From: an uncultured Heliobacteriaceae bacterium
GTDB lineage: Bacteria; Acidobacteriota; Blastocatellia; RBC074
Direction of reading: 5' to 3'
Length of the DNA stretch: 64,000 nucleotides
NCBI GenBank assembly: GCA_964631865.1
Contig: CAZWAK010000015.1
Span: forward strand, 89-64,088
Below the pieces are notes generated by a model. The model was not told where the DNA came from and did no database searches. It worked only from the letters and a program-made list of their open reading frames with translations. Shown here piece by piece: positions 13,134-63,452 of the stretch (its first letter is position 1; the number at the start of each line of letters is the position of its first letter). Both the position numbers and the translations under genes were made by a program.

Positions 13134-13140
13134 ACAATTC

Positions 13141-13370
<230 letters not shown>

Positions 13371-13412: not shown

Positions 13413-13413
13413 T

Positions 13414-13560: not shown

Positions 13561-13638
13561 TTACGATCCATACCCAACGAAAAAAGCCACCGCGATTCCG
13601 AGGTGGCTTTTGTTATTTGCCGAGAAGCTGGGGCCAAA

Positions 13639-13911
13639 CTATTTTTTCTTTTTGGCCGTGCCCTTCGCTTTGGCTTCAGCCCAGCGTTTTTGCTGTGCTT
13701 CGCGAATCTTTTGTTTGGCTTCTTCCGACATCGGTCGTTTCTTTTTGCGGGGCTTCGCTGGGGCAGCCGCTTTCGTCGTTTTGCTGCCGCCGACGATGGA
13801 AGCCAACTGATTGCGTTTTGCCTGTAATTGCGCAATCTGCGCATCTATTGCTGCCACCGCTTTGGTGATATGTTCGTTCGGATCGAAGGTTTCGGTTTTA
13901 CCTCGTGGCAT
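13639..13911 (-). CDS. Small lysine-rich basic protein (histone-like tail), hypothetical
   Basis: 90 aa. AAGGAG 8 nt upstream of the ATG at 13911. C-terminal KKKRP...AKKKK tail. Confidence 0.55.
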   Translation of the reverse strand: MPRGKTETFDPNEHITKAVAAIDAQIAQLQAKRNQLASIVGGSKTTKAAAPAKPRKKKRPMSEEAKQKIREAQQKRWAEAKAKGTAKKKK

Positions 13912-14095
13912 TTTATTCTCCTTAAAGATTTAATAGTTTAGTAGGTGAAGACTAAACTTCGTTTCCATGTTGCGGCGGATTGTACTGGAAAGATTTTATT
14001 TTTTCTACAGGTAAGGAGTAGAAAAGTAATTTTTCCCAAAATGATTTATCCCTCGAAGTAATCCAAAATAGTTTCTACTGAAGAAAGCTGGAGTT

Positions 14096-48059: not shown

Positions 48060-48749
48060 ATGGCGACAGATTATTACCGCGTTAGCAATGTCGTCCGAAG
48101 CAATATAGATAGCTTCGGCCTCGTAAAAACTATTTATGATCTATTTTACAAAATAGCCAATCGTATTTGGCTGTTTCGAGTCTTGAAATGCATGGTAATT
48201 AGCAAAGTTGACCCAAACTATCTGAAAAGTGCCGGTCAATATCAATATCTCTTTCTTGATACAGAGATGCTTTATAAGTTCGCGCAACGCCCAGAGTACG
48301 ATCTTTCGGAAGCATTTTTGCGCCACGCCGAAGAGCGCGGCGACGAATGTTACGCCATTCTGGATGGAGATACGTTAGCGAGCTATGGCTGGTATTCCAA
48401 TCGCCCTGTCAACGTAGGTTTTGAAGGTGACGAGGGAGAAGGAGAGACTCTGCGCCTGCATTTCAATGACCGATACATCTATATGTATAAGGGCTATACG
48501 CACACCGCCTATCGCGGACAGCGCCTGCATGCTATCGGGATGACGCACGCCCTGGAAGCGTATTTGAAGCGCGGCTTCAAAGGGTTGGTTTCTTATGTCG
48601 AGGCCAACAATTACCGCTCCTTGAAGTCTGTCTACCGGATGGGCTATCAGGACTTCGGCAAAATTTCTATCTTCAGAATTTTGGGTAAGTATCTGATCTA
48701 CAACAGCAAGGGCTGCAAAGAGTATGGATTTAAAATGGAAGTACTTTGA
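48060..48749 (+). CDS. GNAT-family acyltransferase in a visibly AT-richer segment
   Basis: YRGQRLHAIGMTHAL resembles the GNAT motif A (Q/R-x-x-G-x-G/A). Local GC is clearly lower than the flanks. Confidence 0.55.
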   Translation: MATDYYRVSNVVRSNIDSFGLVKTIYDLFYKIANRIWLFRVLKCMVISKVDPNYLKSAGQYQYLFLDTEMLYKFAQRPEYDLSEAFLRHAEERGDECYAILDGDTLASYGWYSNRPVNVGFEGDEGEGETLRLHFNDRYIYMYKGYTHTAYRGQRLHAIGMTHALEAYLKRGFKGLVSYVEANNYRSLKSVYRMGYQDFGKISIFRILGKYLIYNSKGCKEYGFKMEVL

Positions 48750-48898: not shown

Positions 48899-49957
48899 AT
48901 GTATTCGAACACCACACCAGAAGGTAATGGAGGTCAACCCACCCAGACTTCTATTGAAATCTTTGCCACTTGTCCGCAATCGAGTCAGGTGCCGAAAGAA
49001 ACTTATCTCAATCACGTGATCGAGGTCGCCCAATGGAGCGAGAAATATGGCTGCAAAGGCATTCTGGTTTACACCGACAACTCGTTGGTAGACCCCTGGC
49101 TGGTTTCGCAGGTTATCATCGAAAACACCCAGACCCTGTGCCCACTGGTTGCTGTCCAACCCATTTACATGCATCCCTACACCGCTGCCCGGATGTGCGC
49201 TACTTACGGGTATCTCTACAATCGCCAGATTTATCTGAATATGCTGGCGGGGGGATTCAAAAATGACTTGTTGGCCTTGAATGACCCGACACCGCATGAC
49301 CAACGCTATGAGCGGATGGTGGAATATGTGGAAGTCATCAAGCGGCTGCTGGCCAACGACTTTGGCGTGAGTTACAGCGGCGAATTCTATACTGTTGATA
49401 AATTGCGCATGCGACCACCGCTGCCGCCGGAACTCTTCCCCGGTATTCTGGTTTCAGGTTCTTCTGAGGCTGGATTGGCGGCGGCCAAAGCCATTGGCGC
49501 GACGGCGGTCAAGTATCCGAAACCGCCGGGCGATTACGAAAATGATCCGCCGAACGAAAACCTCAACGCTGGCGTGCGGGTCGGGATCATCGCGCGGGAC
49601 AATGCGGATGAAGCCTGGCGCGTCGCGCACGAACGCTTCCCCGAAGACCGCAAAGGCGAACTGGCCCATCAAATGGCCATGAAAGTTTCCGATTCGGTCT
49701 GGCACAAACAACTCTCGGACTTAGGCAAGACGACGGAAAACAATCCGTACTGGTTGACGCCTTTTCAGCATTACAAAACCTTCTGCCCATATCTGGTCGG
49801 CAACTACGCGACGGTTGCGGCAGAAGTCGCCCGCTACATTGCGCTGGGCTTTCAAACCTTCATCGTAGACATTCCGCCGAGCGAAGAAGAGTTGTACCAC
49901 ATGGACATTGTGTTCCAACAAGCTGCCGCGCGCCTGACGCTGAAGGAGGCTGCGTGA
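48899..49957 (+). CDS. LLM-class (luciferase-like) flavin-dependent oxidoreductase, secondary-metabolite-associated subtype
   Basis: TIM-barrel LLM blocks (IEIFATCPQS.., GVRVGIIARDNADEAW). Stop overlaps the start of the adenylation gene (ATGA), i.e. translational coupling. GAGGT RBS. Confidence 0.75.
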   Translation: MYSNTTPEGNGGQPTQTSIEIFATCPQSSQVPKETYLNHVIEVAQWSEKYGCKGILVYTDNSLVDPWLVSQVIIENTQTLCPLVAVQPIYMHPYTAARMCATYGYLYNRQIYLNMLAGGFKNDLLALNDPTPHDQRYERMVEYVEVIKRLLANDFGVSYSGEFYTVDKLRMRPPLPPELFPGILVSGSSEAGLAAAKAIGATAVKYPKPPGDYENDPPNENLNAGVRVGIIARDNADEAWRVAHERFPEDRKGELAHQMAMKVSDSVWHKQLSDLGKTTENNPYWLTPFQHYKTFCPYLVGNYATVAAEVARYIALGFQTFIVDIPPSEEELYHMDIVFQQAAARLTLKEAA

Positions 49958-51567
49958 TGAGTTCATTATTACAACAGTTGGTTACGAACCAGGCGGAGCA
50001 GCGCCCGGAAGCCACCGCCATCGTCTACAAACAGGAGCGCCTGACCTACGGCGAGTTGGAAGCGTCGTCCAATCGGTTGGCACGGCTGCTGAAAGAAGCG
50101 GGTTGCCAACGCGGCGACCGCGTGGGGTTTCTCATTCCGAAAACGCCCGCGGCCATCATCACGATCCTCGGCATTCTGAAGGCCGATTGCGCGTATGTGC
50201 CGCTCGATCCTTCAAGCCCCGCGCCCCGTTTGGAAATGATCGTGGATGCCTGCGCGCCGCGCTTCATCATTGCGGGCGGCTCGGTCACGTCGTTGCTTGA
50301 TGAAGTGATGGCGGATGAGTTGCGTCGCAAAGGCACGGCGATTGGCTGGATGGGCGAAGGCAAAGGCGAAGGCCACAACTTCAAAGTGCAATTTTCGCGC
50401 GCCGACTTGAATGGCTACGACGGTGCTGCGCTGGATTACCAAAACACCAGCAGCGATGCGGCCCATATCCTTTTCACGTCGGGTTCAACCGGCGTGCCGA
50501 AAGGCGTGGTGATTACGCACGCCAATGTGTTGCCGTTCATCAATTGGGCCGTGAATTATTTCGGCACACAAGCAGGCGAGAAGATTTCCAGTCATCCGCC
50601 GCTGCACTTCGATCTTTCGACCTACGACATCTACGGCACGCTGTCGAGCGGCGCTGAGTTGCACATCGTGCCGACGGAATTGAATCTGCTGCCGCACAAA
50701 CTCGCGGACTTCATTCGCAACTCGGAATTGACGCAGTGGTTTTCGGTGCCTTCGGTCTTGAACTTTATGGCGAAGGCCGATGTCGTGAAGCAGGATGATT
50801 TTCCCACGCTCAAACGGTTGATGTGGTGCGGCGAAGTCTTTCCGACGCCACCGCTGATCTACTGGATGCAACGGCTGCCGCGCGTGCAATTCACGAACCT
50901 CTACGGCCCGACCGAAGCGACGATTGCCAGCAGTTACTACACCGTGCCTGAATGCCCGGCGAACGAGCGCGTAGACATTCCCATTGGCTTGCCGTGCGAC
51001 GGCGAAGAGTTGGTCGTGCTGGATGAAGAATTGAAGCCGTTGCCGCCGGGCGAAATCGGTGATCTGTACATCGCGGGTGTGGGCTTGAGTCCGGGTTACT
51101 GGCGCGATGCCGAAAAGACGAACGGCGTGTTTATTCGTCGTCCCGGCAGTTCTGATCCGAATGACCGCATTTACAAAACGGGCGATCTGGCCAAGCTCGG
51201 TGAAGACGGCCTCGTGTACTACCTGGGACGTGCGGATTCGCAAATCAAGAGTCGCGGCTATCGCATTGAGTTGGGCGAAATCGAGACGGCCTTGAATGCG
51301 CTCAATGTTACGGAAGAATGTGCCATCGTGGCCATCAACACGGGCGGCTTTGAAGGCGTGGCGATTTGCTGCGCGTATGTGCCGCTCCCTGATGCCGACG
51401 TAACGCCGACGCGATTGCGTGCGGATTTGAGCAAAGCGTTGCCGAGTTACATGCTCCCGGCGCGTTGGATGCAGTTCGAGCGGTTGCCCAAGAATGCCAA
51501 CGGCAAGATTGATCGCAAAGTGCTGCGCGAACAATTCCAACAAGAAGCGCAAGGCACGGCGAGTTAA
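49957..51567 (+). CDS. Stand-alone NRPS-type adenylation (A) domain protein
   Basis: Full set of A-domain cores: LFTSGSTGVPKGV (A3), NLYGPTE (A5), YKTGDLAK (A7), GRADSQIKSRGYRIELGEIE (A8), LPKNANGKIDR (A10). No condensation or thioesterase domain. Confidence 0.85.
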   Translation: MSSLLQQLVTNQAEQRPEATAIVYKQERLTYGELEASSNRLARLLKEAGCQRGDRVGFLIPKTPAAIITILGILKADCAYVPLDPSSPAPRLEMIVDACAPRFIIAGGSVTSLLDEVMADELRRKGTAIGWMGEGKGEGHNFKVQFSRADLNGYDGAALDYQNTSSDAAHILFTSGSTGVPKGVVITHANVLPFINWAVNYFGTQAGEKISSHPPLHFDLSTYDIYGTLSSGAELHIVPTELNLLPHKLADFIRNSELTQWFSVPSVLNFMAKADVVKQDDFPTLKRLMWCGEVFPTPPLIYWMQRLPRVQFTNLYGPTEATIASSYYTVPECPANERVDIPIGLPCDGEELVVLDEELKPLPPGEIGDLYIAGVGLSPGYWRDAEKTNGVFIRRPGSSDPNDRIYKTGDLAKLGEDGLVYYLGRADSQIKSRGYRIELGEIETALNALNVTEECAIVAINTGGFEGVAICCAYVPLPDADVTPTRLRADLSKALPSYMLPARWMQFERLPKNANGKIDRKVLREQFQQEAQGTAS

Positions 51568-51588
51568 ATCGAAGCGGGAGGGTTGCAC

Positions 51589-52545
51589 TTGAACATACTA
51601 CTGGTGGGCGAAGAATCGGCAGGCACGCAAACACTGAAGATGCTGGCGAACAGCGAGCATAAGTTAGTGGGCGTGATGGCCTCGGCGACTCGACAAGCGA
51701 CGGGCGGGATGACGCTGTGGCAGTTCGCTGAAAAGCAGGGCTGTCGCACGTGGCCGGCGGCGCTGGTGAAAGATCCGGCGTTTGCCGAGGTGGTCAGGGC
51801 GGAACAAGTGGATTTGTTGCTCAACGTGCATTCGCTCTTTGTGATTAAGGGGGAGATTGTGGCTGCCCCGCGTATTGGCAGTTTCAATCTACATCCCGGC
51901 CCGCTGCCGCGTTACGCCGGACTGAACGCGCCGAGTTGGGCCATCTATCACGACGAAAAAGTTCACGGCGTCACGCTGCACCGCATGCTCGCCGGAATTG
52001 ACACAGGCACTATCGCGTATCAGGCGCTCTTTGACATCGAAGCGCGCGACACTGGGTTTTCGCTGAGCGCGAAATGTATCCGCGCGGGGTTGGAGTTGAT
52101 CAAACAGTTGCTGGCCACAGCCGCTGTTGATCCACAGCGAATCCCCGCGCTTGAGCAGGACTTCACGGAGCGGCAATACTTCGGCAAAGAAACACCGGAG
52201 GACGGTTGGCTCGCGTGGTCACGTCCGGCGCGCAGGATTCACAACTTTGTGCGTGCGGCGGATTACTCCCCGTTTACCTCTCCCTGGAAAACCCCACGTT
52301 CCAGACTGGGAGGCGAAGAAATCGGTTTTGTGAAAACCACTCTGACCGGACAACCGTGCGCTGTGCCGCCCGGCACTATCGGGTCGGTGCTCGGCACGCA
52401 AGTGCAGGTAGCCTGTGCGGATCAATGGTTGGCGGTCGAACGAGTGCTACACAATGGCAAGCCCGCTCCGGCGGCGACTGTACTCAAACCGGGCGAACGG
52501 CTCGTGGGGAAGGAAGAACTCGAATTTCATAACGAACACAAATAA
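51589..52545 (+). CDS. Formyltransferase-family protein (Fmt/ArnA-N-terminal-like)
   Basis: SFNLHPGPLPRYAGLNAPSWAIYHDEKVHGVTLHRMLAGIDTGTI corresponds to the formyl_trans_N active-site region (N..H..SLLP.YRG-type). TTG start at 51589 or 51583 after GGGAGG. Confidence 0.7.
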   Translation: MNILLVGEESAGTQTLKMLANSEHKLVGVMASATRQATGGMTLWQFAEKQGCRTWPAALVKDPAFAEVVRAEQVDLLLNVHSLFVIKGEIVAAPRIGSFNLHPGPLPRYAGLNAPSWAIYHDEKVHGVTLHRMLAGIDTGTIAYQALFDIEARDTGFSLSAKCIRAGLELIKQLLATAAVDPQRIPALEQDFTERQYFGKETPEDGWLAWSRPARRIHNFVRAADYSPFTSPWKTPRSRLGGEEIGFVKTTLTGQPCAVPPGTIGSVLGTQVQVACADQWLAVERVLHNGKPAPAATVLKPGERLVGKEELEFHNEHK

Positions 52546-52557
52546 GGAGTAAGTCAA

Positions 52558-52824
52558 ATGACAAATAACGCTGTCACACACGAACAAATCATGCGATTGC
52601 TGGCCGACCGGGTACATATCGAAGCCCCGTCGGTGGACACCGATTTGATGGACTCAGGCTTGCTCGACTCGCTCACGCTGGTCGAGTTGATGAGCAGCCT
52701 GGAAGAAGAGTTTGGCATTGCCATCTCGTTCGACGAAATCGAATTAGACAATTTTCGCTCGGTGGCGCGCATCACGGACTTTGTGCGCGAGCGCAGTGGC
52801 GTCATGGAATTGGCGGTGGCTTAA
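52558..52824 (+). CDS. Acyl/peptidyl carrier protein
   Basis: 88 aa. Phosphopantetheine attachment motif LMDSGLLDSLTLVELMSSLEEEFG. AAGGAG RBS. Confidence 0.8.
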   Translation: MTNNAVTHEQIMRLLADRVHIEAPSVDTDLMDSGLLDSLTLVELMSSLEEEFGIAISFDEIELDNFRSVARITDFVRERSGVMELAVA

Positions 52825-52885: not shown

Positions 52886-53302
52886 ATGCAGTTACAGCAA
52901 AAACACACAAAGCCAACCTTTCGGGCGGAGCGCGAGTTCGGTCTGCTGGTGGGGGCCGTGCTGCTCCTGTTGGGCAGTTGGTGGCTTTATCGCGGACATT
53001 GGCCGACCGTTGCCAAAGTGTTCGCCGGACTTAGTTCGGTCTTGATTCTGTTTGGCGCTTTGTTCCCCAAGGCGCTGGTGCTGCCCAACCGCGCCTGGAT
53101 GGGCTTAGCCAAATGGATTTCTTTAGTCACGACCCCGATCATTCTCGGATTAGTCTATTTCTTAATCATTATGCCTATCGGCGTGGTGAAGCGGTGGTCG
53201 GGTTGGGACCCACTACGCCGTCGCGCGCCTGCCGCCACTTCGTACTGGACAACCTATAACGCGCGGCAACGTGACCCGCAACATTTTGAAAAGATGTTCT
53301 AA
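52886..53302 (+). CDS. SxtJ-family small membrane protein
   Basis: 138 aa, 3-4 TM helices. Composition and position typical of SxtJ homologues, which accompany carbamoyltransferases. Confidence 0.55.
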   Translation: MQLQQKHTKPTFRAEREFGLLVGAVLLLLGSWWLYRGHWPTVAKVFAGLSSVLILFGALFPKALVLPNRAWMGLAKWISLVTTPIILGLVYFLIIMPIGVVKRWSGWDPLRRRAPAATSYWTTYNARQRDPQHFEKMF

Positions 53303-53320
53303 CTTCAGGAGAAAACTTAT

Positions 53321-53479
53321 ATGTCAAGATTAAGCGTCGTTGGTGAACTTTGGCAGTTCATGAAGCACAACAAAAAATTCTGGCTGGCCCCGATTGTCAT
53401 TGTTCTGGTGACGATTGGCGTGCTTCTGGCAGTGGCCGGAAGCTCCGCGTTGGCTCCATTCATCTATACACTCTTTTAA
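53321..53479 (+). CDS. SxtK-like/DUF5989-type micro-membrane protein (52 aa); too short for the ORF track
   Basis: atg at 53321 after AGGAG. Translation MSRLSVVGELWQFMKHNKKFWLAPIVIVLVTIGVLLAVAGSSALAPFIYTLF, a single TM. Confidence 0.5.
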   Translation: MSRLSVVGELWQFMKHNKKFWLAPIVIVLVTIGVLLAVAGSSALAPFIYTLF

Positions 53480-53480
53480 T

Positions 53481-53566
53481 CAGCTATCAGCTATCAGCCA
53501 TTAGCCATCAGCTAATGGCTGATAGCTAATGGCTAATAGCTAATAGCTGATAGCTAATGGCTAATA
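53481..53566. repeat. Heptanucleotide tandem array (12 units) forming a long imperfect palindrome
   Basis: CTATCAG CTATCAG CCATTAG CCATCAG, then the reverse-complement units CTAATGG CTGATAG CTAATGG CTAATAG CTAATAG CTGATAG CTAATGG CTAATAG. Ends 9 nt before the carbamoyltransferase RBS. Confidence 0.85.
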
Positions 53567-53581
53567 GGAAGGTTTAGTTTT

Positions 53582-55507
53582 ATGACCAGTATTCTGGGAA
53601 TCTCTGCGTTTTATCACGATTCTGCGGCCTGCCTCGTCGTTGATGGCGAGATCATTGCTGCTGCACAGGAAGAGCGCTTCACCCGCGTCAAGCACGATCA
53701 TCGCTTCCCCGGCAACGCTGTGATGTACTGTCTCAAAGAAGCAGGCATCACGCCGGAGCAAATTGATTACGTCGGCTTCTACGATAAGCCGCTGCTCAAA
53801 TTCGACCGCTTGCTGGAAACCTATCTGGATTACACTCCGGCAGGCTTCGTGTCGTTCCTCAAATCCATGCCGATGTGGATGAAGGAAAAGTTGTGGGCAC
53901 CCGATTTGATCCGCACCGATTTCGCCAAAGCTCTCGGCGCAGAAGATGATCGCGCCGCGCGCAAGATGGCGAAAACATTCAAATGGAAGCTGCTCTTCGG
54001 CGATCATCACGAGAGCCACGCGGCCAGCGCCTTTTATCCTTCGCCGTATGAAGAAGCCGCCGTTCTCACGCTCGATGGCGTCGGCGAATGGGCGACCAGT
54101 TCGATTGGGATTGGGCGCGGCAACGAATTGACAATGCTCAAGGAATTGCGCTTCCCCGACAGCCTCGGACTGCTCTACAGCGCGTTTACTTACTACACGG
54201 GCTTCAAGGTCAACAGCGGCGAATACAAAGTCATGGGACTGGCTCCGTACGGCGAACCTAAATATGTTTCGTTGATCAAAGACAAAGTGGTGGAAATCTG
54301 CGACGACGGCAGCCTGCGCATGAATCAGGACTATTTTGAATACAGTCAGGGCTTGCGCATGACGAACAACACGTTCGCCAAACTCTTCGGCGCTCCCGCG
54401 CGTGAACCGGAATCGAAGGTCACACAACGCGAGATGGATTTGGCGCGCAGCGTGCAGGAAATCACCGAAGAAGCCGTGATGAAGATGGCGGAGTTTACGC
54501 GCAAGGAAACCGGCCTGAAGCGGCTTTGTATGGCGGGCGGCGTGGCGCTGAATTGCGTGGCCAATGGCAAGCTCTTACGCAAAGGCATCTTTGATGACAT
54601 CTGGATTCAACCGGCGGCAGGTGATGCCGGCGGTGCGCTCGGCATTGCGCTGGCAATCTGGCATCGCTATCTCGGCAAAGGTCGCACCAGCCCGGAAAGC
54701 CAGGGGACGTGGGTCTCGTCGCGTTCGTATGCCAATGGTGTTCCATTGCCTTACGCCGACAGCATGAAAGGCTCCTATCTCGGTCCGAAAAATTCGGAAG
54801 AAGAGATTGAGCGATACCTCAAAGCGAACAATTATCCCTACACCAAATACAGCCGCGAAGAATTGCCGCATGCCGTAGGCAGGTTGCTGGCTTCAGAAAA
54901 AGTCATCGGCTTGCATCAAGGCCGCATGGAATTTGGCCCGCGCGCGTTGGGCGGTCGCAGCATCATCGGTGACGCCCGCTCTACCAAGATGCAATCCATC
55001 ATGAATCTGAAGATCAAGTACCGGGAAAGCTTCCGCCCGTTTGCGCCGAGCGTGCTGCGGGAACATGTGGCTGATTGGTTTGATCTGAATACTGACAGCC
55101 CGTACATGCTGTTGGTGGCCGATGTGCGCGAGAACCGTTGCCGCCAGATGACGAGAGACGAAGAAGAACTCTGGGGCATCGAGAAGCTAAATGTTGTGCG
55201 CTCGGAAATCCCGGCGGTCACGCACGTGGATTACTCGGCGCGCATTCAAACCGTGCGCCACGACGTCAATCCGCTCTACTGGGAAATCATGGAAGCATTT
55301 CGGAAACTCACCGGCTGCCCTGTGATCGTCAACACCAGCTTCAATGTGCGCGGCGAACCGATTGTTTGTTCACCCGAAGACAGCTATCGCTGCTTTATGC
55401 GCACCGAGATGGACGCATTGGTACTGGAAACGTGCGTGTTAGAGAAAAAAGATCAGCCTGAATTCAAAGATAAGACCGATTGGCGGTCAGAATTCACGCT
55501 CGACTAA
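53582..55507 (+). CDS. NodU/CmcH-family O-carbamoyltransferase
   Basis: MTSILGISAFYHDSAACLV.. Carbam_trans_N and Carbam_trans_C. 641 aa. Confidence 0.9.
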   Translation: MTSILGISAFYHDSAACLVVDGEIIAAAQEERFTRVKHDHRFPGNAVMYCLKEAGITPEQIDYVGFYDKPLLKFDRLLETYLDYTPAGFVSFLKSMPMWMKEKLWAPDLIRTDFAKALGAEDDRAARKMAKTFKWKLLFGDHHESHAASAFYPSPYEEAAVLTLDGVGEWATSSIGIGRGNELTMLKELRFPDSLGLLYSAFTYYTGFKVNSGEYKVMGLAPYGEPKYVSLIKDKVVEICDDGSLRMNQDYFEYSQGLRMTNNTFAKLFGAPAREPESKVTQREMDLARSVQEITEEAVMKMAEFTRKETGLKRLCMAGGVALNCVANGKLLRKGIFDDIWIQPAAGDAGGALGIALAIWHRYLGKGRTSPESQGTWVSSRSYANGVPLPYADSMKGSYLGPKNSEEEIERYLKANNYPYTKYSREELPHAVGRLLASEKVIGLHQGRMEFGPRALGGRSIIGDARSTKMQSIMNLKIKYRESFRPFAPSVLREHVADWFDLNTDSPYMLLVADVRENRCRQMTRDEEELWGIEKLNVVRSEIPAVTHVDYSARIQTVRHDVNPLYWEIMEAFRKLTGCPVIVNTSFNVRGEPIVCSPEDSYRCFMRTEMDALVLETCVLEKKDQPEFKDKTDWRSEFTLD

Positions 55508-55638
55508 CGTTTAGTCACAATGCGCAAAGTACAATTGTGTAAGTTACTTCTTTCAGGATCAAAGCTGAGGATTTGAACTTACGGCGCACTAACTTATCTG
55601 ACGTCAGCGTATTACGCTGACATCGTTGGAGAGTTGAG

Positions 55639-56622
55639 ATGAGCGATCTCTGGAAAAAAAGAATTGCTTTATTGCTTTCGTCGCTCTTATTTTGTGTGTT
55701 TCTGCTCTTACTCTTTGAAGTCGGTGTACGGCTCTTCGGTCCAACCATCAACTTCCAGGGGACGGAAATGTCTTTACAACAGCAGCGGGTCTTCGGTACC
55801 GCGCACGGCTGGGTGCCGAATGCTAGTGGGCTGTGTTTTGGCAAGCAAGTCGAGATAGATGAATATGGTTTCCGCAAACAGAATTCTCCGCAAGAGTATG
55901 ATTCTTCGTGGTTGATTCTGGGGGATTCAGTTACTTTCGGAGTCGGTGTGGATGGAGAGGCTACTTATATTCAACTACTTCAGAACGAACTTCAGAGAAT
56001 AAGATTGTGGAATACTTCTGTGATCGGCTACGACGTGGACAACTACAAAAGTGTCCTCAATCACTTCCTGGCTGAAAGCCAGAAAATTCCCAATATAAAG
56101 AAGGTGATTTTGTTCTTTTGCCTGAATGACGTTGATCTGGTCGAAGGTAATTCTCACGTCCGACCGCCTTCGTCGGAATTTGCCGGAAAGATATTGTCGC
56201 TGCTGGGCCATAACTCAAAATCCTATATCTTATTGAAAGATACGATTTCGGACCGCAGTAAATTTTATTATCAGCACGACTCTGATTTGTATGCAGACTC
56301 TGCGGGTAAATTTACGAAGGCGATGCGTATAATAAGTGAGATACAGGCCGCTTTGCGTGCCAGAGATATAGACTTTTCAGTCGTTATACTTCCTTATGAG
56401 TATCAACTGAGAACCAGGGAAGGGCAGCATTTACTGCCCCAAAAGCGTCTCGCTCAGTACTTTCAGGAAAATGGAATTCGATATATTGACGCTTACGAAC
56501 ATTTCGACCGCTCAGGGCTTAGTACCAAAGAAACCTTTTTATACGCCGACTTCTGTCATTTCTCCAAGGCGGGGCATCAGGTGATGGCGAATCTACTCAA
56601 AGAGCATTATAAGGCGGAGTAG
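55639..56622 (+). CDS. Membrane-anchored SGNH/GDSL-like hydrolase/acyltransferase-fold protein (paralog 1)
   Basis: N-terminal TM. Block I ILGDSVTFGVG. Block V DFCHFSKAGH (DxxH). Low local GC. Confidence 0.65.
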   Translation: MSDLWKKRIALLLSSLLFCVFLLLLFEVGVRLFGPTINFQGTEMSLQQQRVFGTAHGWVPNASGLCFGKQVEIDEYGFRKQNSPQEYDSSWLILGDSVTFGVGVDGEATYIQLLQNELQRIRLWNTSVIGYDVDNYKSVLNHFLAESQKIPNIKKVILFFCLNDVDLVEGNSHVRPPSSEFAGKILSLLGHNSKSYILLKDTISDRSKFYYQHDSDLYADSAGKFTKAMRIISEIQAALRARDIDFSVVILPYEYQLRTREGQHLLPQKRLAQYFQENGIRYIDAYEHFDRSGLSTKETFLYADFCHFSKAGHQVMANLLKEHYKAE

Positions 56623-56727
56623 TTTTGCGTTATTAAAAGACAACTTTCCAAATTAAATGCTCTATGCCGCTACGGTTTTATAAGGCTGAATAGCGGAACT
56701 TACTACACACAAAGGGGGTAACAGCAA

Positions 56728-58521
56728 ATGTACATCCTCGGTATTTCTGGACATCATCGCAACGCATCTGCTGCGCTTATCAAAGACGGGCGGCTTATTG
56801 CTGCCATTGAGGAAGATAAGTTAGTACGTGTCAATCATATTGGCATTGCTCAATCGGGCGGACTGCCTTATGCCGCGATTGGCTATTGTTTGGAAGCAGC
56901 GGGCATCGGAATTGATGAAATAGATTACGTCACATATTATCAAAAGCCGCGCCGCTTGTTGCAACGACAACTACGCTTCAGCGAGCAGTTCAAGCCAGGG
57001 AATGGCGCTGGCTCCGAAGATCACCAAGCGGCCAGTGTAAATGAATTCCACGACCGCCTGAAAACACTGCACTTGACCCGGCGTTTGTTGGGACAACGGG
57101 CCAAAGTAATCGCGGTAGATCATCAACTGGCGCACGCGGCCAGCGCCTTTTATTTATCAGGCTTTGAGCGCTCCGCCGTCCTGGTACTTAGTGGGCGCGG
57201 CGATTACATTTCCATTGCTGTCGGCATCGGCGAGGGGCGCAAAGTGCGCATTCTCAAACGCATCGAATTTCCGCATTCGCTCGGTTTGGTCTACAGTCTG
57301 ATGACAGAGCACCTGGGCTTTAGTGCGGGTGGTGGCGAACACAACACGCAATGGCTCAGCACCACAGGCGAACCGGAATTTCTCGCCCCCTTTCAGGAGA
57401 TGATTAAGATTTGCCCCAATGGTATGCCATCGGTGGACACCTCCTTTTTTACTCCTTCTTTGCAAGCCCCTGATGCTTTTTCAGAGAAGTTTTATAGTCG
57501 GTTCGGCGATCATTCCCGTCGTCACCATCATCGCTTCAATGGCAGTGCAAAGAAGCGTTCGTGGACAGAGTTGGTGGGAGAGATGACTGGACGTCAACAC
57601 CTCTCGCTGCCCAGCAACAGCTATCGCCGCAATGTGGCGCACAGTCTCCAACAACATCTCGAACAAGTCGTGCTGGCCTTAGCGGAAAGCATCCGCCACG
57701 AGTACAAAGTAGATGCCTTATGCCTGGCCGGTGGCGTAGCACTCAACAGTTTGATCGTCGCTCGACTGGAGCGCGAAAGCGGTTATCAACATCTTTTTGT
57801 CCAGCCTGCTACGGGGAATTCCGGGTGCAGCATCGGCTCCGCGCTTTTCCATTGGCATCATCAACTTGAACAAGGGCGACCGGAAGCGTTGGAACATGTC
57901 TTTCTCGGCCCTGAATTTTCTGACCAGGAAATCAAACCCGAACTAGACAATTGTAAATTAGCTTATCGCTACATTACTTCAGAAGAGAAGTTATTGGATG
58001 AGATCGTGAACTTACTACATCGCGGCAACATTCTTGCTTGGTTTCAAGGGCGTGCAGAGTTTGGCCCGCGTACTTTGGGGGCGAGAAGTATCCTGGCCGA
58101 TCCAACCTTGGATTACACCAAAGAGAACTTGAACTTATTCGTCAAGCATCGGGAAGCTTATCGCCCCTTTGCGGCGTCAGTCCCTGAAGAACGGGCGGCG
58201 GAATTTTTTGAGAATTGTGGATCGCTGTCGCGCTTTTTGCTGACCGTGTCGCAAGTCAGAGAAGACAAACGTCATTTGATTCCAGCCGCGTGCTTTGCCA
58301 ATGGAAAGGCGCGTGTTCATATCGTCAGTCGTAAGACCAACCCGCTGTTCTGGCGCTTACTCAATAAGTTTGGGGAAAAGACAGGGGTTCCAGTATTAGT
58401 CAATACTTCCTTTAATTTGTTCGGAGAGCCGATTGTTTGCACGCCCCGCGAAGCCGTGCGAAGCTTGTACTGCTCCGGACTGGATGCGTTGGTAATTAAC
58501 AATTTCCTGATTCAGAAATAA
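56728..58521 (+). CDS. NodU/CmcH-family O-carbamoyltransferase (second paralog)
   Basis: MYILGISGHHRNASAALIKDG.. 597 aa. Confidence 0.88.
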   Translation: MYILGISGHHRNASAALIKDGRLIAAIEEDKLVRVNHIGIAQSGGLPYAAIGYCLEAAGIGIDEIDYVTYYQKPRRLLQRQLRFSEQFKPGNGAGSEDHQAASVNEFHDRLKTLHLTRRLLGQRAKVIAVDHQLAHAASAFYLSGFERSAVLVLSGRGDYISIAVGIGEGRKVRILKRIEFPHSLGLVYSLMTEHLGFSAGGGEHNTQWLSTTGEPEFLAPFQEMIKICPNGMPSVDTSFFTPSLQAPDAFSEKFYSRFGDHSRRHHHRFNGSAKKRSWTELVGEMTGRQHLSLPSNSYRRNVAHSLQQHLEQVVLALAESIRHEYKVDALCLAGGVALNSLIVARLERESGYQHLFVQPATGNSGCSIGSALFHWHHQLEQGRPEALEHVFLGPEFSDQEIKPELDNCKLAYRYITSEEKLLDEIVNLLHRGNILAWFQGRAEFGPRTLGARSILADPTLDYTKENLNLFVKHREAYRPFAASVPEERAAEFFENCGSLSRFLLTVSQVREDKRHLIPAACFANGKARVHIVSRKTNPLFWRLLNKFGEKTGVPVLVNTSFNLFGEPIVCTPREAVRSLYCSGLDALVINNFLIQK

Positions 58522-58565
58522 AAAAACATCACGCCTGTCAATTGTTAGGCGTGAGGAAAGATGGC

Positions 58566-59801
58566 ATGAGTTTACTTAGGAAGTGTATTCAGGGAATCAA
58601 AGATGCCTGGATAATAGTGGGTATTGCGTTAGGATTGTTCATATTCACAGAGCTAGGGCTTTCACTTGCTTTTTACCTCAAAGACTCTTGGTCTCCGCCT
58701 GTTCCGAACTTTCGCCGGGACGCGGATACTTATTCTGATCGGGCCTGGGCCATACGTTATTATCAGGAGATTGACGAAATTGAAAAAGGCCGATCCATGC
58801 GATGGCACCCCTATACTTATTGGCGGCGCTCACCGCGCCAGGGAGAATTGATCAGTATTACGGCGGAAGGCCTGCGGAAAACTACGAATATTACAACGAC
58901 TACAACTCCAGCTACGAAGGTGTTTATGTTTGGCGGCTCTACTTTATGGGGGTTAGGGACAGAAGATAAAGAAACTATTCCTTCTCTTTTGGCTAAAGAA
59001 GCGAGCGATCAGGGCATAAACTGTGAAGTTGTTAATTATGGGCAATATGCTTATGTGAGTACGCAAGGGGTTGTCGAGTTGATGCGACAGCTTCAGCAAG
59101 GAAATATCCCGGATGTTGTTGTCTTCTACGATGGTACGAACGATACCTTTGGCGCTTTTCAACTTGGCCTCGCCGGTTTGCCGCACGATGAACATTACCG
59201 AGAGAAGGAGTTTGGACTGCTTAGAAGGCCAGAGCTATATCCTGCTGCTGCCCAGTCTGCGATCAGAAACTTAGCGACGATGCGCTTTTTGGATGGCGCA
59301 CTCAAGAAGATAGGGTTACGACATAACGACTTTCAGCCCGTTTCTATGGAATATGAAAAGCCTCTGGCGGATAAAAAAGTACTAGCTCGTGGGGTCGTTG
59401 AAACTTATCTTCAAAATGTGAGACTGGTACAGGCTCTGTCAAAATCCTATGGATTCAAATGTGTATTTTATTGGCAGCCTGTACTTTTTACCAAGCCACA
59501 TCTAACCGAGTATGAGCGTAAGTCTTTAGAAATGGACTTCAGTTTTCCAGGTATGAAAGAGTTTTACTTGGACACCTATAGAAACATCCAACAATGCTCT
59601 GTCGACTTAGAGAAAGAGATTGCGTTCCATGACATTAGTTTGATCTTTCAAGATACGCGGGAGCCGATTTATACAGACTTTAATCACATGGGCGATAAGG
59701 GAAACCGCGTCATCGCTAGAAGAATGATCCAGGATATGGAGCAACTCTTAACAAAAGTGGAGAGAGCAAAACCTGTTCAGCAGGGACTGGGGCGGGAGTA
59801 A
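58566..59801 (+). CDS. Membrane-anchored SGNH-like protein (paralog 2)
   Basis: N-terminal TM. Blocks FMFGGSTLWGLG and DFNHMGDKGN. GAGGA RBS before ATG 58566. Confidence 0.6.
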   Translation: MSLLRKCIQGIKDAWIIVGIALGLFIFTELGLSLAFYLKDSWSPPVPNFRRDADTYSDRAWAIRYYQEIDEIEKGRSMRWHPYTYWRRSPRQGELISITAEGLRKTTNITTTTTPATKVFMFGGSTLWGLGTEDKETIPSLLAKEASDQGINCEVVNYGQYAYVSTQGVVELMRQLQQGNIPDVVVFYDGTNDTFGAFQLGLAGLPHDEHYREKEFGLLRRPELYPAAAQSAIRNLATMRFLDGALKKIGLRHNDFQPVSMEYEKPLADKKVLARGVVETYLQNVRLVQALSKSYGFKCVFYWQPVLFTKPHLTEYERKSLEMDFSFPGMKEFYLDTYRNIQQCSVDLEKEIAFHDISLIFQDTREPIYTDFNHMGDKGNRVIARRMIQDMEQLLTKVERAKPVQQGLGRE

Positions 59802-59889
59802 TTAAGCTTGATTACCTAGCGATGGTGGGTTCTGAGCGAATTTGTATCTAATGGCCTAATAAACTCTTAAAAAGCGAGTGAGAGTCATA

Positions 59890-60948
59890 ATGAGAAAAGT
59901 AGTCAACCAAGTTACTTATATTTGTTTTATGGTGGGTCTTTCTCTTTTGTTATGCGAAGGTGTTATACGGGTATATTCGTGGCTATTTTTCCCCAAAATG
60001 ATGAAGATTGATCCGGCTTTGGGATGGTTTCATACAGTCAATGCACAGAAAAGTTTTACCAATGAAGAGCAGACTATCTTAATCGTTCATAATGCTGTGG
60101 GGCATCGGGGGCCTAATTACGAACCACAGAAAGCGCCAGGAAAACAACGGGTATTGGTGCTGGGAGACTCTTTTACCGAAGGGTCGCATGTAGGGGAAGG
60201 TGATCTGTTTTCGAATATAATTGCGAAGACGTATTCAGACCTTGAGGTAATGAATGCTGGGGTGGGGGGATATAGCTCGGTGCAAGAGTATCTTTACCTC
60301 AAACGAGAAGGATTAAGTTTTCAGCCAGACCTTGTTCTCCTACTCTTCTTTGAAAATGACTTACTGGAAAATTGCTTATCATCGGCTCCGGGGTTAGGCC
60401 CCAGGCCGTATGCTACGTTACAAGATGGACAATTGGTAATTCAGGAAACCCCTATACCCGGAGAGTGGGAGAAGTATGCGCTTCCTATCCCTTTTGCGGC
60501 GCAGCTCAATCAACACAGTCTTGCTTATAATTTTTTCAATTCTCGTGTCTATCAGGTATTGAGGGGATCATATCTCAATCGCCTGGAGCAAGAAGATTTT
60601 AGGCAAACTGATAACCTCCCCAGAGTAGAAATCATAAAGTTGATCTATCAGCAGATGCATCAGATATTGAAAGAGAGAGGGGGAAAGTTTGCCATAGGAT
60701 TAATTCCCAGTAGGGAAAATGCGCAAAGCGGCGTAGTAGGGGTTCAAGCTCCTTTGCTTTCCTTCTGCCAAGAAAAAGGTATTCCTTGTGTCTCGCTTAC
60801 CCCAGCACTCAAGGCCGAATATGATAGGGGGCGCAGGCCATATTTTCTGCACGACATTCATTGGAATAGCGTAGGGCACAAAGTAGCTGCGGAAGTGCTT
60901 GGGCCGTACGTGCGAGAGGTATTATCGCTTCCAACTATTACACCTTGA
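59890..60948 (+). CDS. Membrane-anchored SGNH-like protein (paralog 3)
   Basis: N-terminal TM. Blocks VLGDSFTEGSHV and DIHWNSVGH. Confidence 0.65.
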   Translation: MRKVVNQVTYICFMVGLSLLLCEGVIRVYSWLFFPKMMKIDPALGWFHTVNAQKSFTNEEQTILIVHNAVGHRGPNYEPQKAPGKQRVLVLGDSFTEGSHVGEGDLFSNIIAKTYSDLEVMNAGVGGYSSVQEYLYLKREGLSFQPDLVLLLFFENDLLENCLSSAPGLGPRPYATLQDGQLVIQETPIPGEWEKYALPIPFAAQLNQHSLAYNFFNSRVYQVLRGSYLNRLEQEDFRQTDNLPRVEIIKLIYQQMHQILKERGGKFAIGLIPSRENAQSGVVGVQAPLLSFCQEKGIPCVSLTPALKAEYDRGRRPYFLHDIHWNSVGHKVAAEVLGPYVREVLSLPTITP

Positions 60949-61130
60949 GCGGTGAAAGAGCCTACTTTGCCTAGACTAACCTTTAGTATAGTAGCTTTAC
61001 TGCCTCATATTACGGCGCTCATGTTTGATAAAGAATAGATTGTATTTCATACGAAGGTTTTTGCCGCCTGGTCGCTAGGTTGACAATAGTAATAATGGTA
61101 CTTATTTGAAAATGGTTCTGTAAACTATTT

Positions 61131-62333
61131 ATGAAAGCACTCAACATACAAAATCTATTCAAAGTTTTGTCCATCTGCTTCTCGCTGGTTATTGCTCTGG
61201 TGCTTTGCGAAGTGGTACTTAAACTTTGGTTTGGAACCACCCAAAGCCAGGGCTATTACTTTTGGCCACCCCGTTTGAGTGCGGTCTTCCAGCCAGTGCC
61301 GGAAATTATGCCGGGGATTACGGGCAATTCGCAGTTCATCGCCAATTCGGTGGGCATCAGAGGCGACGAACTTACGCCACAGCACACGCAGCGTATTCTG
61401 GCGATTGGCGCGAGCACCACACAATGCGCTTCGCTGGATCAAGCCGAGATGTGGACGCAGGTCTTACAAGGTAAACTGAACAGCCAGACGCAGGGACTGA
61501 GCGTTTGGGTTGGCAATGGGGGCGTGAGCGGACTAACTTCGAGAAATCATTTGGTTGCAATGCAGCATGTGCCCTTCAAGGAATGGAAGATCAACACCGT
61601 GATTATGTTGTTGGGGGTCAATGATTTCGTCAAACGTCTCTCCCACGATCAGGCTTACGACCCACATTTCCTGGACAAACCCGAAGCCGAGCGGGCTTTG
61701 CTGCTGGAAACGTTTACCGGAACGTATTCAGGGTTTGCGAATGATCCTTTCTACAAGCGGACGGCGCTCTGGCAACTCCTGCGCAAATCGAAGCGTCTCG
61801 TAGCGGCGGACTCTGGTTATCGCGAAGATAAAGACGGAAAGAATTTTGCTGTCTGGCGTAATCATCGGCAGCGGGCGGGCGAAATGCGGGAGACGCTGCC
61901 CGATCTGACGACGGCGCTGGAAGAGTATGCCCGCAATCTGAACCGCATCATTGACGTCGCTCAGCAGCAGTCTCTACGGATGATTTTTGTGACGCAGCCT
62001 AGTCTGTGGAAACCTGGCTTATCGCCTGAGTTGGAGGCGCTGTTGTGGTTAGGTGGAGTGGGCGATTTTCAGAAGGAGTTGGGCAAACCGTACTATTCGG
62101 CAGCGGCGCTGGAAAAGGGGATGACGGCGTATAACGAGACTTTGCTGCGGGTTTGTCGGGAGCGGCAAGTCGAGTGTTTCGATCTGGCTCCGAAGCTGCA
62201 AAAAGATACGACGGTGTTCTTTGATGATGTGCATTTCAATGAGAACGGCGCGCGGCTGGTCGCCGAGGAATTGTCTCGGTACCTGCTTGAGCGCAGCCCG
62301 TTTCGCGAGGCGCTCGCGGCGCATAAACAATAA
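61131..62333 (+). CDS. Membrane-anchored SGNH-like protein (paralog 4)
   Basis: N-terminal TM. Blocks AIGASTTQC, LGVNDF and DDVHFNENG. Confidence 0.65.
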   Translation: MKALNIQNLFKVLSICFSLVIALVLCEVVLKLWFGTTQSQGYYFWPPRLSAVFQPVPEIMPGITGNSQFIANSVGIRGDELTPQHTQRILAIGASTTQCASLDQAEMWTQVLQGKLNSQTQGLSVWVGNGGVSGLTSRNHLVAMQHVPFKEWKINTVIMLLGVNDFVKRLSHDQAYDPHFLDKPEAERALLLETFTGTYSGFANDPFYKRTALWQLLRKSKRLVAADSGYREDKDGKNFAVWRNHRQRAGEMRETLPDLTTALEEYARNLNRIIDVAQQQSLRMIFVTQPSLWKPGLSPELEALLWLGGVGDFQKELGKPYYSAAALEKGMTAYNETLLRVCRERQVECFDLAPKLQKDTTVFFDDVHFNENGARLVAEELSRYLLERSPFREALAAHKQ

Positions 62334-62339
62334 CGATCC

Positions 62340-63452
62340 ATGAACATTCGCTTTGCCGAAGAACAAGACCTTGCCGCCGTGGCCCGCTTCAACAGTCGTT
62401 TGAAGGCCGGGGGCCGCGAGGAGGAAATGCCTTTGGATCCGGCCTTGCCCGGCGAAGCGCGTTACCGCCCCGCAGGCTTTCCGTTGTATCGTCGTTTGAT
62501 TATTGCGGAGGATGGACAGGAAGTGCGCGCGGCGATGCTGCTGTGTCATCACAACGTTTTCATTCGTGGGGAAAGTCACGATTTCTATTGGACGAAAATG
62601 CCTTTGTCCGAGGGGATCGTCAATGCCAAATATTCGCTGGCGATCATCCACCTGATGAAAAAAGCGCTGGTGCATCACCCGTTTATGATGGGCGTGGGCG
62701 CAGGCACACCGGACTCGGACGGCTTCCGCTTGTTTGCCAGCCTGCGCTGGCGCTACGAAGCCGTGCCGTTTTTTTTCTTCCCCGTCCGCGTCGGCAAGGT
62801 TTTGCGGGGCTTGCGGTATTTGCAGAAAAGCGCCAAGCTGCGCTACGGTGCATTGCTCGGCGCGTACTCTGGTGCGGGCGCAGGCGTGAGCGGGTTGCTG
62901 GCCTTGCGGCGCAAGTTATTGACAAACTTGTCGGGGTATGAGACTTCGGTAGCCGAGACCTTTGCCGACTGGGCGGATGAGGTTTTTACGGCGGCCTTGC
63001 CGGAATACCCGGTGGCTGTTCGGTCGGACGCGGCGGCTTTGAATATCGTCTACCCGCCGGACGATCCGCGCTACATTCGGTTGCGCGTGCGGCGCAAAGG
63101 GCGAGAGGTGGGATGGATGGTTGTCGCCCGAAAACAGATGCAGAACAATCATTACTTCGGCGATTTGCAAGTCGGCACGTTGGTGGATGGGTTCGGACGT
63201 TCCGAAGAGGTGCCCGCCTTGATTGCGGCAGGTCTCAATCACCTGGTCGAAACCGGCGTGGACCTGATTGTGGCCAACTTTTCGCACGCGGCCTGGGCGG
63301 CGGCGTGTCGCCGGGTCGGGATGTTTGGGGGGCCGAGCAATTATCAAATTTTTGTCTCCCCACAAGGGCCGCCGCTGCTGGAAGCCGCTTGCCCGTTAGA
63401 CCAACTCCACATCGCGCGCGGGCACAGCGATGGCATGGATAACCTGATTTGA
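62340..63452 (+). CDS. GNAT-superfamily acyltransferase-like protein (370 aa, possibly tandem GNAT/FemAB-like folds)
   Basis: Weak GNAT-like blocks. Followed directly by another GNAT gene. Function inferred from context. Confidence 0.5.
   Translation: MNIRFAEEQDLAAVARFNSRLKAGGREEEMPLDPALPGEARYRPAGFPLYRRLIIAEDGQEVRAAMLLCHHNVFIRGESHDFYWTKMPLSEGIVNAKYSLAIIHLMKKALVHHPFMMGVGAGTPDSDGFRLFASLRWRYEAVPFFFFPVRVGKVLRGLRYLQKSAKLRYGALLGAYSGAGAGVSGLLALRRKLLTNLSGYETSVAETFADWADEVFTAALPEYPVAVRSDAAALNIVYPPDDPRYIRLRVRRKGREVGWMVVARKQMQNNHYFGDLQVGTLVDGFGRSEEVPALIAAGLNHLVETGVDLIVANFSHAAWAAACRRVGMFGGPSNYQIFVSPQGPPLLEAACPLDQLHIARGHSDGMDNLI

Follow-up and report, generated by a model that had tools for sequence, protein, structure and literature searches.

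A probable exopolysaccharide carbamoylation module built on a carbamoyltransferase-SxtJ-SxtK-SGNH cassette in a Blastocatellia-like acidobacterium

Contig CAZWAK010000015.1 was analyzed over a 64,000-nt stretch (the window), and coordinates are window positions unless another locus is named. The module of interest consists of genes for an SxtJ-family membrane protein, an SxtK/DUF5989 microprotein, two carbamoyltransferases (CTs; CT1 and CT2) and four SGNH proteins (SGNH1 to SGNH4). It forms the tailoring end of a Wzx/Wzy-type exopolysaccharide (EPS) locus in a Blastocatellia-like acidobacterium. A check of open reading frames (ORFs) placed nine co-directional plus-strand ORFs, separated by short spacers, at the coordinates claimed for them by an earlier, sequence-only reading of the window (Table 1). 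The cassette is known by name but uncharacterized; new here are a tyrosine-shuttle motif in SxtK, the linkage of SGNH proteins to the cassette, and a pseudo-carbamoyltransferase. The sequence-only reading was broadly right but incomplete, having passed over the FxYxxF shuttle motif of DUF5989 and a DltA/DltC-like pair directly upstream of the cassette.

Pfam and NCBIfam annotation assigned the window from ~21.4 kb onward to the EPS locus. This region encodes an XrtA-like chain-length determinant, a tyrosine autokinase, an export protein, GT2 and GT4 glycosyltransferases, UDP-glucose dehydrogenase, Wzx, Wzy, three polysaccharide deacetylases, a heparinase II/III-like protein and an AsnB-type amidotransferase. 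The flippase, polymerase, chain-length determinant/tyrosine kinase, export protein and glycosyltransferases of a Wzx/Wzy-dependent EPS locus are thus all present. The XrtA-specific models fell short of their cut-offs and an exosortase was not seen in the window, so the locus is assigned to the generic Wzx/Wzy EPS class only. Core sxt biosynthetic genes are absent around the cassette in the window annotation, and its neighbors are EPS genes. This context confirms the polysaccharide locus and makes EPS O-carbamoylation, as the sequence-only reading had suggested, the natural reading of the module. Two Blastocatellia-type genomes served as relatives for synteny, L003 (GCA_035275345.1) and L086 (GCA_009612815.1), and both have the gene order (Lux)-AMP-Fmt-ACP-SxtJ-SxtK-CT(641)-CT(593/597)-SGNH genes. 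The order was seen from the adenylation enzyme onward in L003, where the fetched locus starts, and including the monooxygenase in L086.

The 52-residue ORF proposed as an SxtK/DUF5989-like protein belongs to that family, with a hidden Markov model (HMM) match that spans positions 2-49 of the 49-position profile. Its transmembrane (TM) helix comprises residues 20-38 and is predicted to be oriented N-in/C-out. The net charge is +2.8 in the N-terminal 20 residues and 0 in the C-terminal tail. Homologues of DUF5989 are 71-100% identical, and a pattern-free exhaustive profile search of 1.84 billion representatives returned 4852 cluster representatives at E ≤ 1e-3 (clusters at 50% identity). DUF5989 compared with PDB sequences returned nothing. 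The most invariant part of the family is its exact C-terminus, APFIYTLF, where P46, F47, I48, Y49, T50 and F52 do not vary in the alignment; conservation of this kind is unusual for a microprotein. Among the best 146 of the 4852 representatives, 121 end in F[IV]Y[TSAV][LIV]F, 19 carry the motif followed by an unrelated, non-conserved tail, and 6 are truncated, giving 140 of 146 with the motif. This pattern-free count is the valid estimate of motif conservation, because the peptide APFIYTLF was one of two patterns used in the genome scan for DUF5989 and the count of 81 of 82 in the resulting loci is therefore biased. Only one other protein among the 9,514 ORFs of the fetched loci has an F.Y..F ending, an AlgI-type MBOAT (membrane-bound O-acyltransferase); an MBOAT-type ORF ending in the motif occurs in 1 of 80 cassette loci.

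DltX and bacterial MBOATs such as PatA carry FxYxxF, the "acyl shuttle," at their extracellular C-termini; the shuttle Tyr holds the group as acyl-Tyr and hands it to the catalytic Ser of an N-terminally TM-anchored SGNH protein such as DltD or PatB (PMC12148441). DltX itself has ~48 residues and a single N-in TM helix (PMC12148441). Known C-termini are FIYNEF in one DltX (PMC5541007), FLYFGF in another (PMC11035591) and FIYANF in NgPatA (PMC12148441). SxtK has the properties of a DltX-like shuttle microprotein, namely ~50 residues, one TM helix, a predicted N-in/C-out topology and a C-terminal FxYxxF. The resemblance to DltX extends over size, TM helix, charge bias and motif position, and it suggests functional analogy, not family membership. 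No link of the FxYxxF motif to DUF5989, SxtK or carbamoyltransferases was found in the literature searched.

The gene preceding SxtK encodes the SxtJ-like protein of 138 residues that the sequence-only reading had named, and the family model supports that name. An AlphaFold2 (AF2) model (predicted local distance difference test [pLDDT] 82) has three helices, at residues 13-36, 40-59 and 61-104, followed by a basic C-terminal tail that is conserved. Across phyla, conservation is confined to W71, P97, P61 and R103.

Both carbamoyltransferases combine a Kae1-like N-domain with a YrdC-like C-domain in Pfam, and they share 32% identity. PDB matches were to NovN, GdmN and TobZ at 1e-60 to 1e-66. The first had been called NodU-type, a name that holds at superfamily level only; with the NodU equivalog model NF041651, whose cut-off is 1000 bits, the two CTs scored 136.5 and 129.5. 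Catalytic positions were placed by alignment to GdmN and NovN, with residue roles taken from GdmN structures (PMC9633730): H27 is the catalytic His and H133, H137, D156 and D333 are the Fe ligands. CT1 reads H/H/H/D/D at these five positions, as do 70 of 74 cassette CTs. CT2 reads R-H-H-S-N, with Arg, Ser and Asn in place of H27, D156 and D333, and its orthologues in L003 and L086 are identical at these positions. The "double carbamoyltransferase" of the sequence-only reading is accordingly a pair of paralogues in which CT1 alone is intact; CT2 has neither the catalytic base nor two of the Fe ligands that an active class III transferase would have. The Kae1-like transfer site of CT2 is degenerate and its YrdC-like domain is well conserved, and from this sequence pattern CT2 is probably an adenylate-forming or scaffolding/structural partner of CT1. 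A degeneracy of another kind occurs in the acidobacterial glycan locus L088 (7842-12088), where the order is CT(586)-SxtJ-SxtK-CT(639) and the extra CT lacks the catalytic His only (G-H-H-D-D).

CT1 ends in ...DWRSEFTLD (55480-55507), and a tail of the form [FYL]x[LPAMK]D-COOH is found in 60 of 69 cassette CTs (DWRSEFTLD and DWKEEFELD, for example; loci L006-L085). CT2 and its orthologues lack this tail. The conserved tail may be a docking motif for SxtJ/SxtK, and its distribution points to CT1 as the putative docking and transferring enzyme.

The four SGNH proteins had been described as N-terminally membrane-anchored with an SGNH fold, and Pfam, hhalign and their hydrophobic N-terminal segments agree with this description. 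Each N-terminus has basic residues (net positive) followed by a hydrophobic segment. Blocks I (Ser), II (Gly), III (Asn) and V (Asp/His) occur in order, the block I Ser and the block III ND are invariant, and alignment located both the catalytic Ser and His in all four. The motifs had been given as GDS-like and DxxH in each; GDS itself occurs in two (GDS, GGS, GDS, GAS in SGNH1 to SGNH4), and SGNH3 reads DxH at block V. The fold was assigned to SGNH3 by AF2 and Foldseek and to the other three by profile-profile comparison. Against the SGNH3 family, hhalign gave 98.6% for SGNH1, which also has a weak ALGX match (6e-5), 97.5% for SGNH4, and 96.2% for the SGNH2 family (E 2e-9, 314 columns, from the TM helix to block V). 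SGNH2 is the most divergent of the four and has an alternative ATG start at 58566 (411 residues), the start called in locus L001. SGNH3 has 441 homologues and a likely ATG start at 59890 (352 residues); its AF2 model (pLDDT 93.8) combines a long helix at the N-terminus with the SGNH domain and a small insert rich in beta structure. Pairwise identity among the four proteins is 19-24%, so the tandem paralogs of the sequence-only reading are paralogues, but old ones and not products of recent tandem duplication. The SGNH3-family profile matched AlgJ (5e-7), Bacillus cereus PatB1 (7e-6) and AlgX (2e-3), in each case only around block V. These three are MBOAT-partnered polysaccharide O-acetyltransferases. 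The Pfam ALGX model scored 20.8-24.9 bits on the SGNH proteins, below its cut-off of 26.5, and their motif order is that of ordinary SGNH proteins.

Cassettes in other genomes were collected with the DUF5989 alignment. The scan of a genome collection matched at least 563 species, and 80 loci were kept from more than 15 phyla, including Acidobacteriota, Bacteroidota, Pseudomonadota, Planctomycetota, Nitrospirota, Omnitrophota and Actinomycetota. These loci were searched with HMMs made from the window's proteins. A CT lies within 6 kb of DUF5989 in 73 of the 80 loci and SxtJ within 3 kb in 72, which bears out the proposal that the SxtJ-SxtK-CT trio recurs outside saxitoxin clusters. The description of the trio as mechanistically uncharacterized also stands, as no mention of DUF5989 was found in the literature searched and saxitoxin papers list SxtJ and SxtK as "unknown." An SGNH protein of at least 280 residues lies within 6 kb of DUF5989 in 38 of 80 loci, and in 28 the nearby protein is 280-480 residues long and begins with a strongly hydrophobic segment. 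Per 10 kb there are 0.55 SGNH hits near the DUF5989 anchor versus 0.13 farther out, and TM-anchored SGNH genes are enriched ~4-8-fold beside the trio. SGNH proteins, seen earlier as interleaved genes, are thus a statistically linked fourth member of the CT-SxtJ-SxtK cassette. With the window's EPS proteins as single-sequence phmmer queries, polysaccharide context was detected in at least 24 of 80 loci, which is a lower bound. Cyanobacteria contributed a single fetched locus (L040), and it does not belong to an sxt cluster. The SGNH expansion of the window is carried to an extreme in an alphaproteobacterial metagenome-assembled genome (L037, 5500-19500), where about ten SGNH-family ORFs surround one SxtJ-SxtK-CT set with an apparent second DUF5989 copy.

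The 68 cassette-linked SGNH proteins retain the catalytic Ser in 68 and the His in 66 cases. In 60 of them the TM helix has an acidic residue at its outer end, and this residue may be a contact for the shuttle-bearing partner. In SGNH3 it falls at 59944-59970 (LLLCEGVIR); Arg often follows four residues on, and the same feature is present in P0052. This protein is an SGNH3-family member (43% identity) from a gammaproteobacterial EPS locus (L093) with an MBOAT ending in EFLYYQF, which means that the SGNH3 clade occurs with either kind of FxYxxF carrier. The same locus encodes a 1107-residue SGNH-CT fusion (12558-15881, minus strand) that has no TM segment, carries a ~150-residue C-terminal extension and ends in ...ESIYVMF. 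As a Rosetta-stone case, the fusion is evidence that the two enzymes are functionally linked. The MBOAT gene (1708-3273, plus strand) and three more SGNH genes adjoin it. Relatives of the C-terminal extension were absent from the metagenome scan.

The module very probably serves EPS carbamoylation and ester tailoring. In the cytoplasm, CT1 would make carbamoyl-AMP from carbamoyl phosphate and ATP, the established chemistry of its family, while SxtJ and SxtK would hold it at the membrane through its conserved C-terminal tail. The carbamoyl group would then pass to Tyr49 in the SxtK sequence FIYTLF; the motif, its position and the predicted topology suggest a role like that of the FxYxxF shuttle in DltX and PatA-type MBOATs. 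The catalytic Ser of an SGNH protein would take the carbamoyl group from Tyr49 and place it on a polysaccharide hydroxyl, in analogy to DltD, PatB and AlgJ. In chemical terms, an aryl carbamate should be able to donate its carbamoyl group to a nucleophilic serine. The four divergent SGNH paralogues could serve different acceptor positions or different groups, with CT2 supporting CT1 in the manner suggested above. More speculatively, the upstream DltA-like enzyme, formyltransferase and DltC-like carrier might feed an (N-formyl)aminoacyl group into the same or a parallel route. The relay through Tyr49 is proposed tentatively, on analogy, with chances that we judge a little short of even. A wider generalization is possible but decidedly bolder: the cassette would be an MBOAT-independent tyrosine-shuttle pathway, present in thousands of lineages, that exports activated carbamoyl groups to the periplasm and onto envelope polysaccharides, SxtK would be the counterpart of DltX, and in cyanobacteria SxtL would be a terminal transferase acting on decarbamoyl-saxitoxin, not a decarbamoylase.

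Known systems share much of this organization. The Dlt (DltX-DltA-DltB-DltC-DltD), PatA/PatB and AlgI/AlgJ/AlgX systems likewise place FxYxxF at the end of a ~50-residue N-in/C-out microprotein or of an MBOAT, rely on the catalytic Ser of an N-terminally TM-anchored SGNH protein, activate the group with an adenylate-forming enzyme in the cytoplasm, and have a cell-envelope polymer as the target. Here a DltA-like and DltC-like pair also adjoins the cassette. Unlike these systems, the module has no MBOAT, its activating enzyme is a carbamoyltransferase, and its membrane partner is the small SxtJ; the transferred group would be carbamoyl, unlike the acyl group of Dlt, and DUF5989 fails the DltX HMM. 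The saxitoxin block sxtI-sxtJ-sxtK-sxtL contains the same four families (O-carbamoyltransferase, SxtJ, SxtK and GDSL/SGNH), and in sxt clusters SxtL is a GDSL lipase with SxtJ and SxtK listed as "unknown" (PMC2679770). The cassette here differs in its Wzx/Wzy EPS context, in having two CTs and four SGNH proteins, and in having no other sxt genes. Class III CTs (TobZ, GdmN, NovN, NodU/NolO and CmcH) have the same Kae1-like and YrdC-like domains, and CT1 keeps their catalytic His and H/H/D/D Fe site; the cassette CTs differ from them in the extra C-terminal tail, the window's CTs in scores far below the NodU equivalog cut-off, and CT2 in the loss of three catalytic residues. The best structural match of the SGNH3 model is CgnD (PDB 8a2n; TMq 0.55, E 3e-8), an SGNH-type hydrolase of the crocagin pathway. 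That pathway also has a carbamoyltransferase, CgnI, and crocagin is a carbamoylated natural product. Unlike SGNH3, CgnD is a soluble dimer and slow leader peptidase without a TM anchor; identity is 14%, and no SxtJ or SxtK appears in its paper.

The "unknown" entry for SxtJ and SxtK dates from the description of the saxitoxin clusters (PMC2679770), and the literature searched is silent on DUF5989 despite its ~4,850 cluster representatives. Recognition of FxYxxF turns an uncharacterized cassette into a hypothesis that is testable by mutation. If the relay is true, the acyl-Tyr mechanism of Dlt, Pat and Alg extends to carbamoyl chemistry and to an MBOAT-free system. A heavily decorated EPS would be predicted for Acidobacteria, with carbamoyl and possibly aminoacyl/formyl groups, which bears on soil aggregation and desiccation tolerance. 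The site and the protein of the final carbamoylation of saxitoxin would also be worth re-examination.

Several results weigh against the relay. No MBOAT, AT3 or other obvious trans-membrane conduit is encoded in the window; its polytopic proteins (Wzx, Wzy, an amino-acid permease and RseP) all lack a terminal FxYxxF. SxtJ has no conserved His, Ser, Cys or other polar/catalytic residue across phyla, and its AF2 model gave no meaningful Foldseek fold match. The passage of a group activated in the cytoplasm to a periplasmic Tyr is therefore unexplained. DUF5989 had no Pfam match to the DltX HMM PF12459 at E ≤ 10, where a genuine DltX scored 75.7 bits. An hhalign comparison with Bacillus thuringiensis DltX aligned 7 motif columns only (probability 0.5%), and comparison with two MBOAT C-termini yielded one weak match (E 0.009). 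Homology of DUF5989 to DltX or MBOAT tails is consequently not claimed. Carbamoyl-Tyr was not reported in the literature searched. Foldseek with the SGNH3 model ranked generic SGNH esterases, CgnD first, and placed DltD and PatB outside the top 50. About half of the cassettes have no SGNH gene within 6 kb, and the trio without SGNH is found inside glycan loci, such as L006 (J-K-CT only) and L088; the SGNH partner is thus frequent but not obligatory, at least in cis. The SGNH-CT fusion has no TM segment, which places both of its domains in the cytoplasm in the L093 lineage.

Some of these observations fit the main rival, which is essentially the view of the sequence-only reading. It holds that CT1 carbamoylates a nucleotide sugar or an undecaprenyl-PP-linked repeat unit on the cytoplasmic face, that SxtJ and SxtK only tether or orient CT1, and that the SGNH proteins are independent periplasmic esterases, which would remove or remodel O-acyl groups of the EPS. 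Direct action on the final acceptor is the rule for all characterized class III CTs (PMC9633730), the conserved CT tail and the conserved basic SxtJ tail fit docking, half of the cassettes lie in glycan loci with no SGNH gene nearby, and the Foldseek neighbors of SGNH3 are esterases. However, simple tethering leaves unaccounted for the most conserved part of SxtK, a predicted extracytoplasmic C-terminal FIYTLF in the form of an acyl shuttle, as well as the enrichment of TM-anchored SGNH genes beside the trio and the SGNH-CT fusion. We consider this explanation rather unlikely.

The shuttle and SGNH proteins might instead mainly serve the DltA-like/DltC-like pair, forming (N-formyl)aminoacyl esters on the EPS in a D-alanylation-like reaction, with carbamoylation by CT1 a separate cytoplasmic step. 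An adenylation enzyme, a carrier and a formyltransferase do lie directly upstream of SxtJ/SxtK, they are syntenic in L003 and L086, and the gene set parallels dltXACD. However, adenylation/carrier homologues were detected in only ~4 to 5 of 80 loci (single-sequence phmmer), SxtJ/SxtK travel with a CT, and no DltB/MBOAT is present in the window, which makes an aminoacyl route as the main function improbable.

The SGNH1, CT2, SGNH2 and SGNH3 genes lie in an AT-richer block, and the possibility that the block is a recent horizontal insertion unrelated to the adjoining cassette has to be weighed. The sequence-only reading had pointed to this block against surroundings of ~60% GC and had taken it as consistent with horizontal acquisition. 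The block is indeed the lowest 5.6-kb stretch of the window, at 46.5% GC compared with 55.5% for positions 1-52885, and the GC content at third codon positions (GC3) is 0.43-0.54 compared with 0.64-0.77 in most other EPS genes; the surrounding DNA has ~55-58% GC, lower than had been stated. SGNH4 has a GC3 of 0.63, already near normal. Orthologues of CT2 and the SGNH genes occur in the same synteny in both relatives and are AT-richer than their flanks there too, with GC3 of 0.51-0.58 versus 0.64-0.75 in most flanking genes in L003 and 0.43-0.45 versus 0.47-0.56 in L086. The best homologues are acidobacterial (60-72% identity), and searches of the block borders turned up neither a tRNA nor long repeats, direct or inverted. 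These findings argue for low GC as an old, shared property of these genes; they weaken the acquisition claim and leave a recent insertion unsupported and of low probability. The composition could stem from an acquisition long ago or from a bias specific to the locus, of a sort common in variable polysaccharide genes. SGNH gene content turns over between the relatives: L003 and L086 each have two SGNH2-like copies, the SGNH2 orthologues being duplicated, and L003 lacks SGNH1 and SGNH4 orthologues. Further AT-richer patches lie at ~2-3 kb, 13-15 kb and 20-22 kb, and a GNAT gene (48060-48749) has 45.7% GC and a GC3 of 0.535, so the block is the largest but not the sole compositional dip in the window.

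That the SGNH proteins remove carbamoyl groups to give reversible or patterned carbamoylation is very improbable. In its favor, SxtL, a GDSL lipase beside sxtIJK, is annotated "decarbamoylation" (PMC2679770), and hydrolysis would suit an SGNH fold whose triad is intact. However, the SxtL role is no more than a prediction, it is hard to see why one small group should need four divergent hydrolases, and the AlgJ/PatB1 similarity and the shuttle motif point to transfer.

Table 1. Coordinates of the module and of adjoining features in the window
Feature	Position	Strand	Evidence
LLM (luciferase-like) flavin monooxygenase	48899..49957	+	Pfam Bac_luciferase 1.2e-28; same position in L086
Stand-alone amino-acid adenylation enzyme, DltA-like	49954..51567	+	TIGR01733 382.5 bits, cut-off 317.4
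Formyltransferase-like protein (Fmt/ArnA type)	51583..52545	+	Pfam Formyl_trans_N and Formyl_trans_C
Carrier protein (PP-binding), 88 aa, weakly DltC-like	52558..52824	+	Pfam PP-binding 3.5e-12; DltC 38.7 bits, cut-off 68
SxtJ-family membrane protein, 138 aa	52886..53302	+	PF19588, 42.5 bits, gathering cut-off 24.4
SxtK/DUF5989 microprotein, 52 aa, one TM helix	53321..53479	+	PF19451, 86.8 bits, cut-off 27
Codons F47-I-Y49-T-L-F52, exact SxtK C-terminus	53459..53476	+	Fits FxYxxF acyl-shuttle motif
Heptamer-repeat palindrome, long hairpin in SxtK-CT1 spacer	53479..53567	+	-52.9 kcal/mol, z -6.3 vs shuffles
CT1, intact class III (TobZ/GdmN-type) O-carbamoyltransferase	53582..55507	+	Pfam N-domain 334 bits, C-domain 239 bits
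AT-richer block: SGNH1, CT2, SGNH2, SGNH3	55508..61130	.	46.5% GC, GC3 0.43-0.54
SGNH1, 327 aa, N-terminal TM anchor, GDS...ND...DFCH	55639..56622	+	Above Lipase_GDSL_2 cut-off
CT2, divergent CT paralogue	56728..58521	+	Carbam_trans_N and Carbam_trans_C, latter 196 bits
SGNH2, 419 aa from TTG start, GGS...ND...DFNH	58542..59801	+	Pfam E 0.03
SGNH3, 356 aa, TM helix and SGNH domain, GDS...ND...DIHW	59878..60948	+	Above Lipase_GDSL_2 cut-off
SGNH4, 400 aa, TM anchor, GAS...ND...DDVH	61131..62333	+	Pfam Lipase_GDSL_2 1.5e-12
Conserved protein, 370 aa, no family assignment	62340..63452	+	No Pfam/NCBIfam match; syntenic with module

Directly 5' of SxtJ, a set of four genes (48899-52824) encodes the monooxygenase, the adenylation enzyme, the formyltransferase and the carrier, with the monooxygenase as the first gene of this conserved upstream sub-module. 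DltA models gave 332 and 318 bits with the adenylation enzyme, both below the DltA cut-offs. The formyltransferase-like protein scored 114 bits with the NCBIfam ArnA-like model and 90 bits with the Fmt model, also below cut-off in each case. The set suggests an aminoacyl decoration, N-formylated or hydroxylated. Homologues closest to SGNH3, SxtJ and SxtK are acidobacterial.

Downstream, an orthologue of the 370-residue protein lies directly 3' of the SGNH genes in L003. Past the window end (L001, 6450-10547), proteins of 372 and 400 residues without a family match are followed by one of 579 residues with an Acetyltransf_6 (FemAB-like) domain. Scanning for promoters and terminators found fewer sites than in shuffled controls, and its output was set aside. 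Degenerate 7-nt repeats (AGCTAAT, AGCCATT and similar) make up the SxtK-CT1 spacer and form an imperfect hairpin; L003 and L086 have no such hairpin in the equivalent spacer. Two adjoining tRNA-Ser genes (anticodons CGA and GGA) lie at 13144-13370, a long way upstream of the EPS locus.

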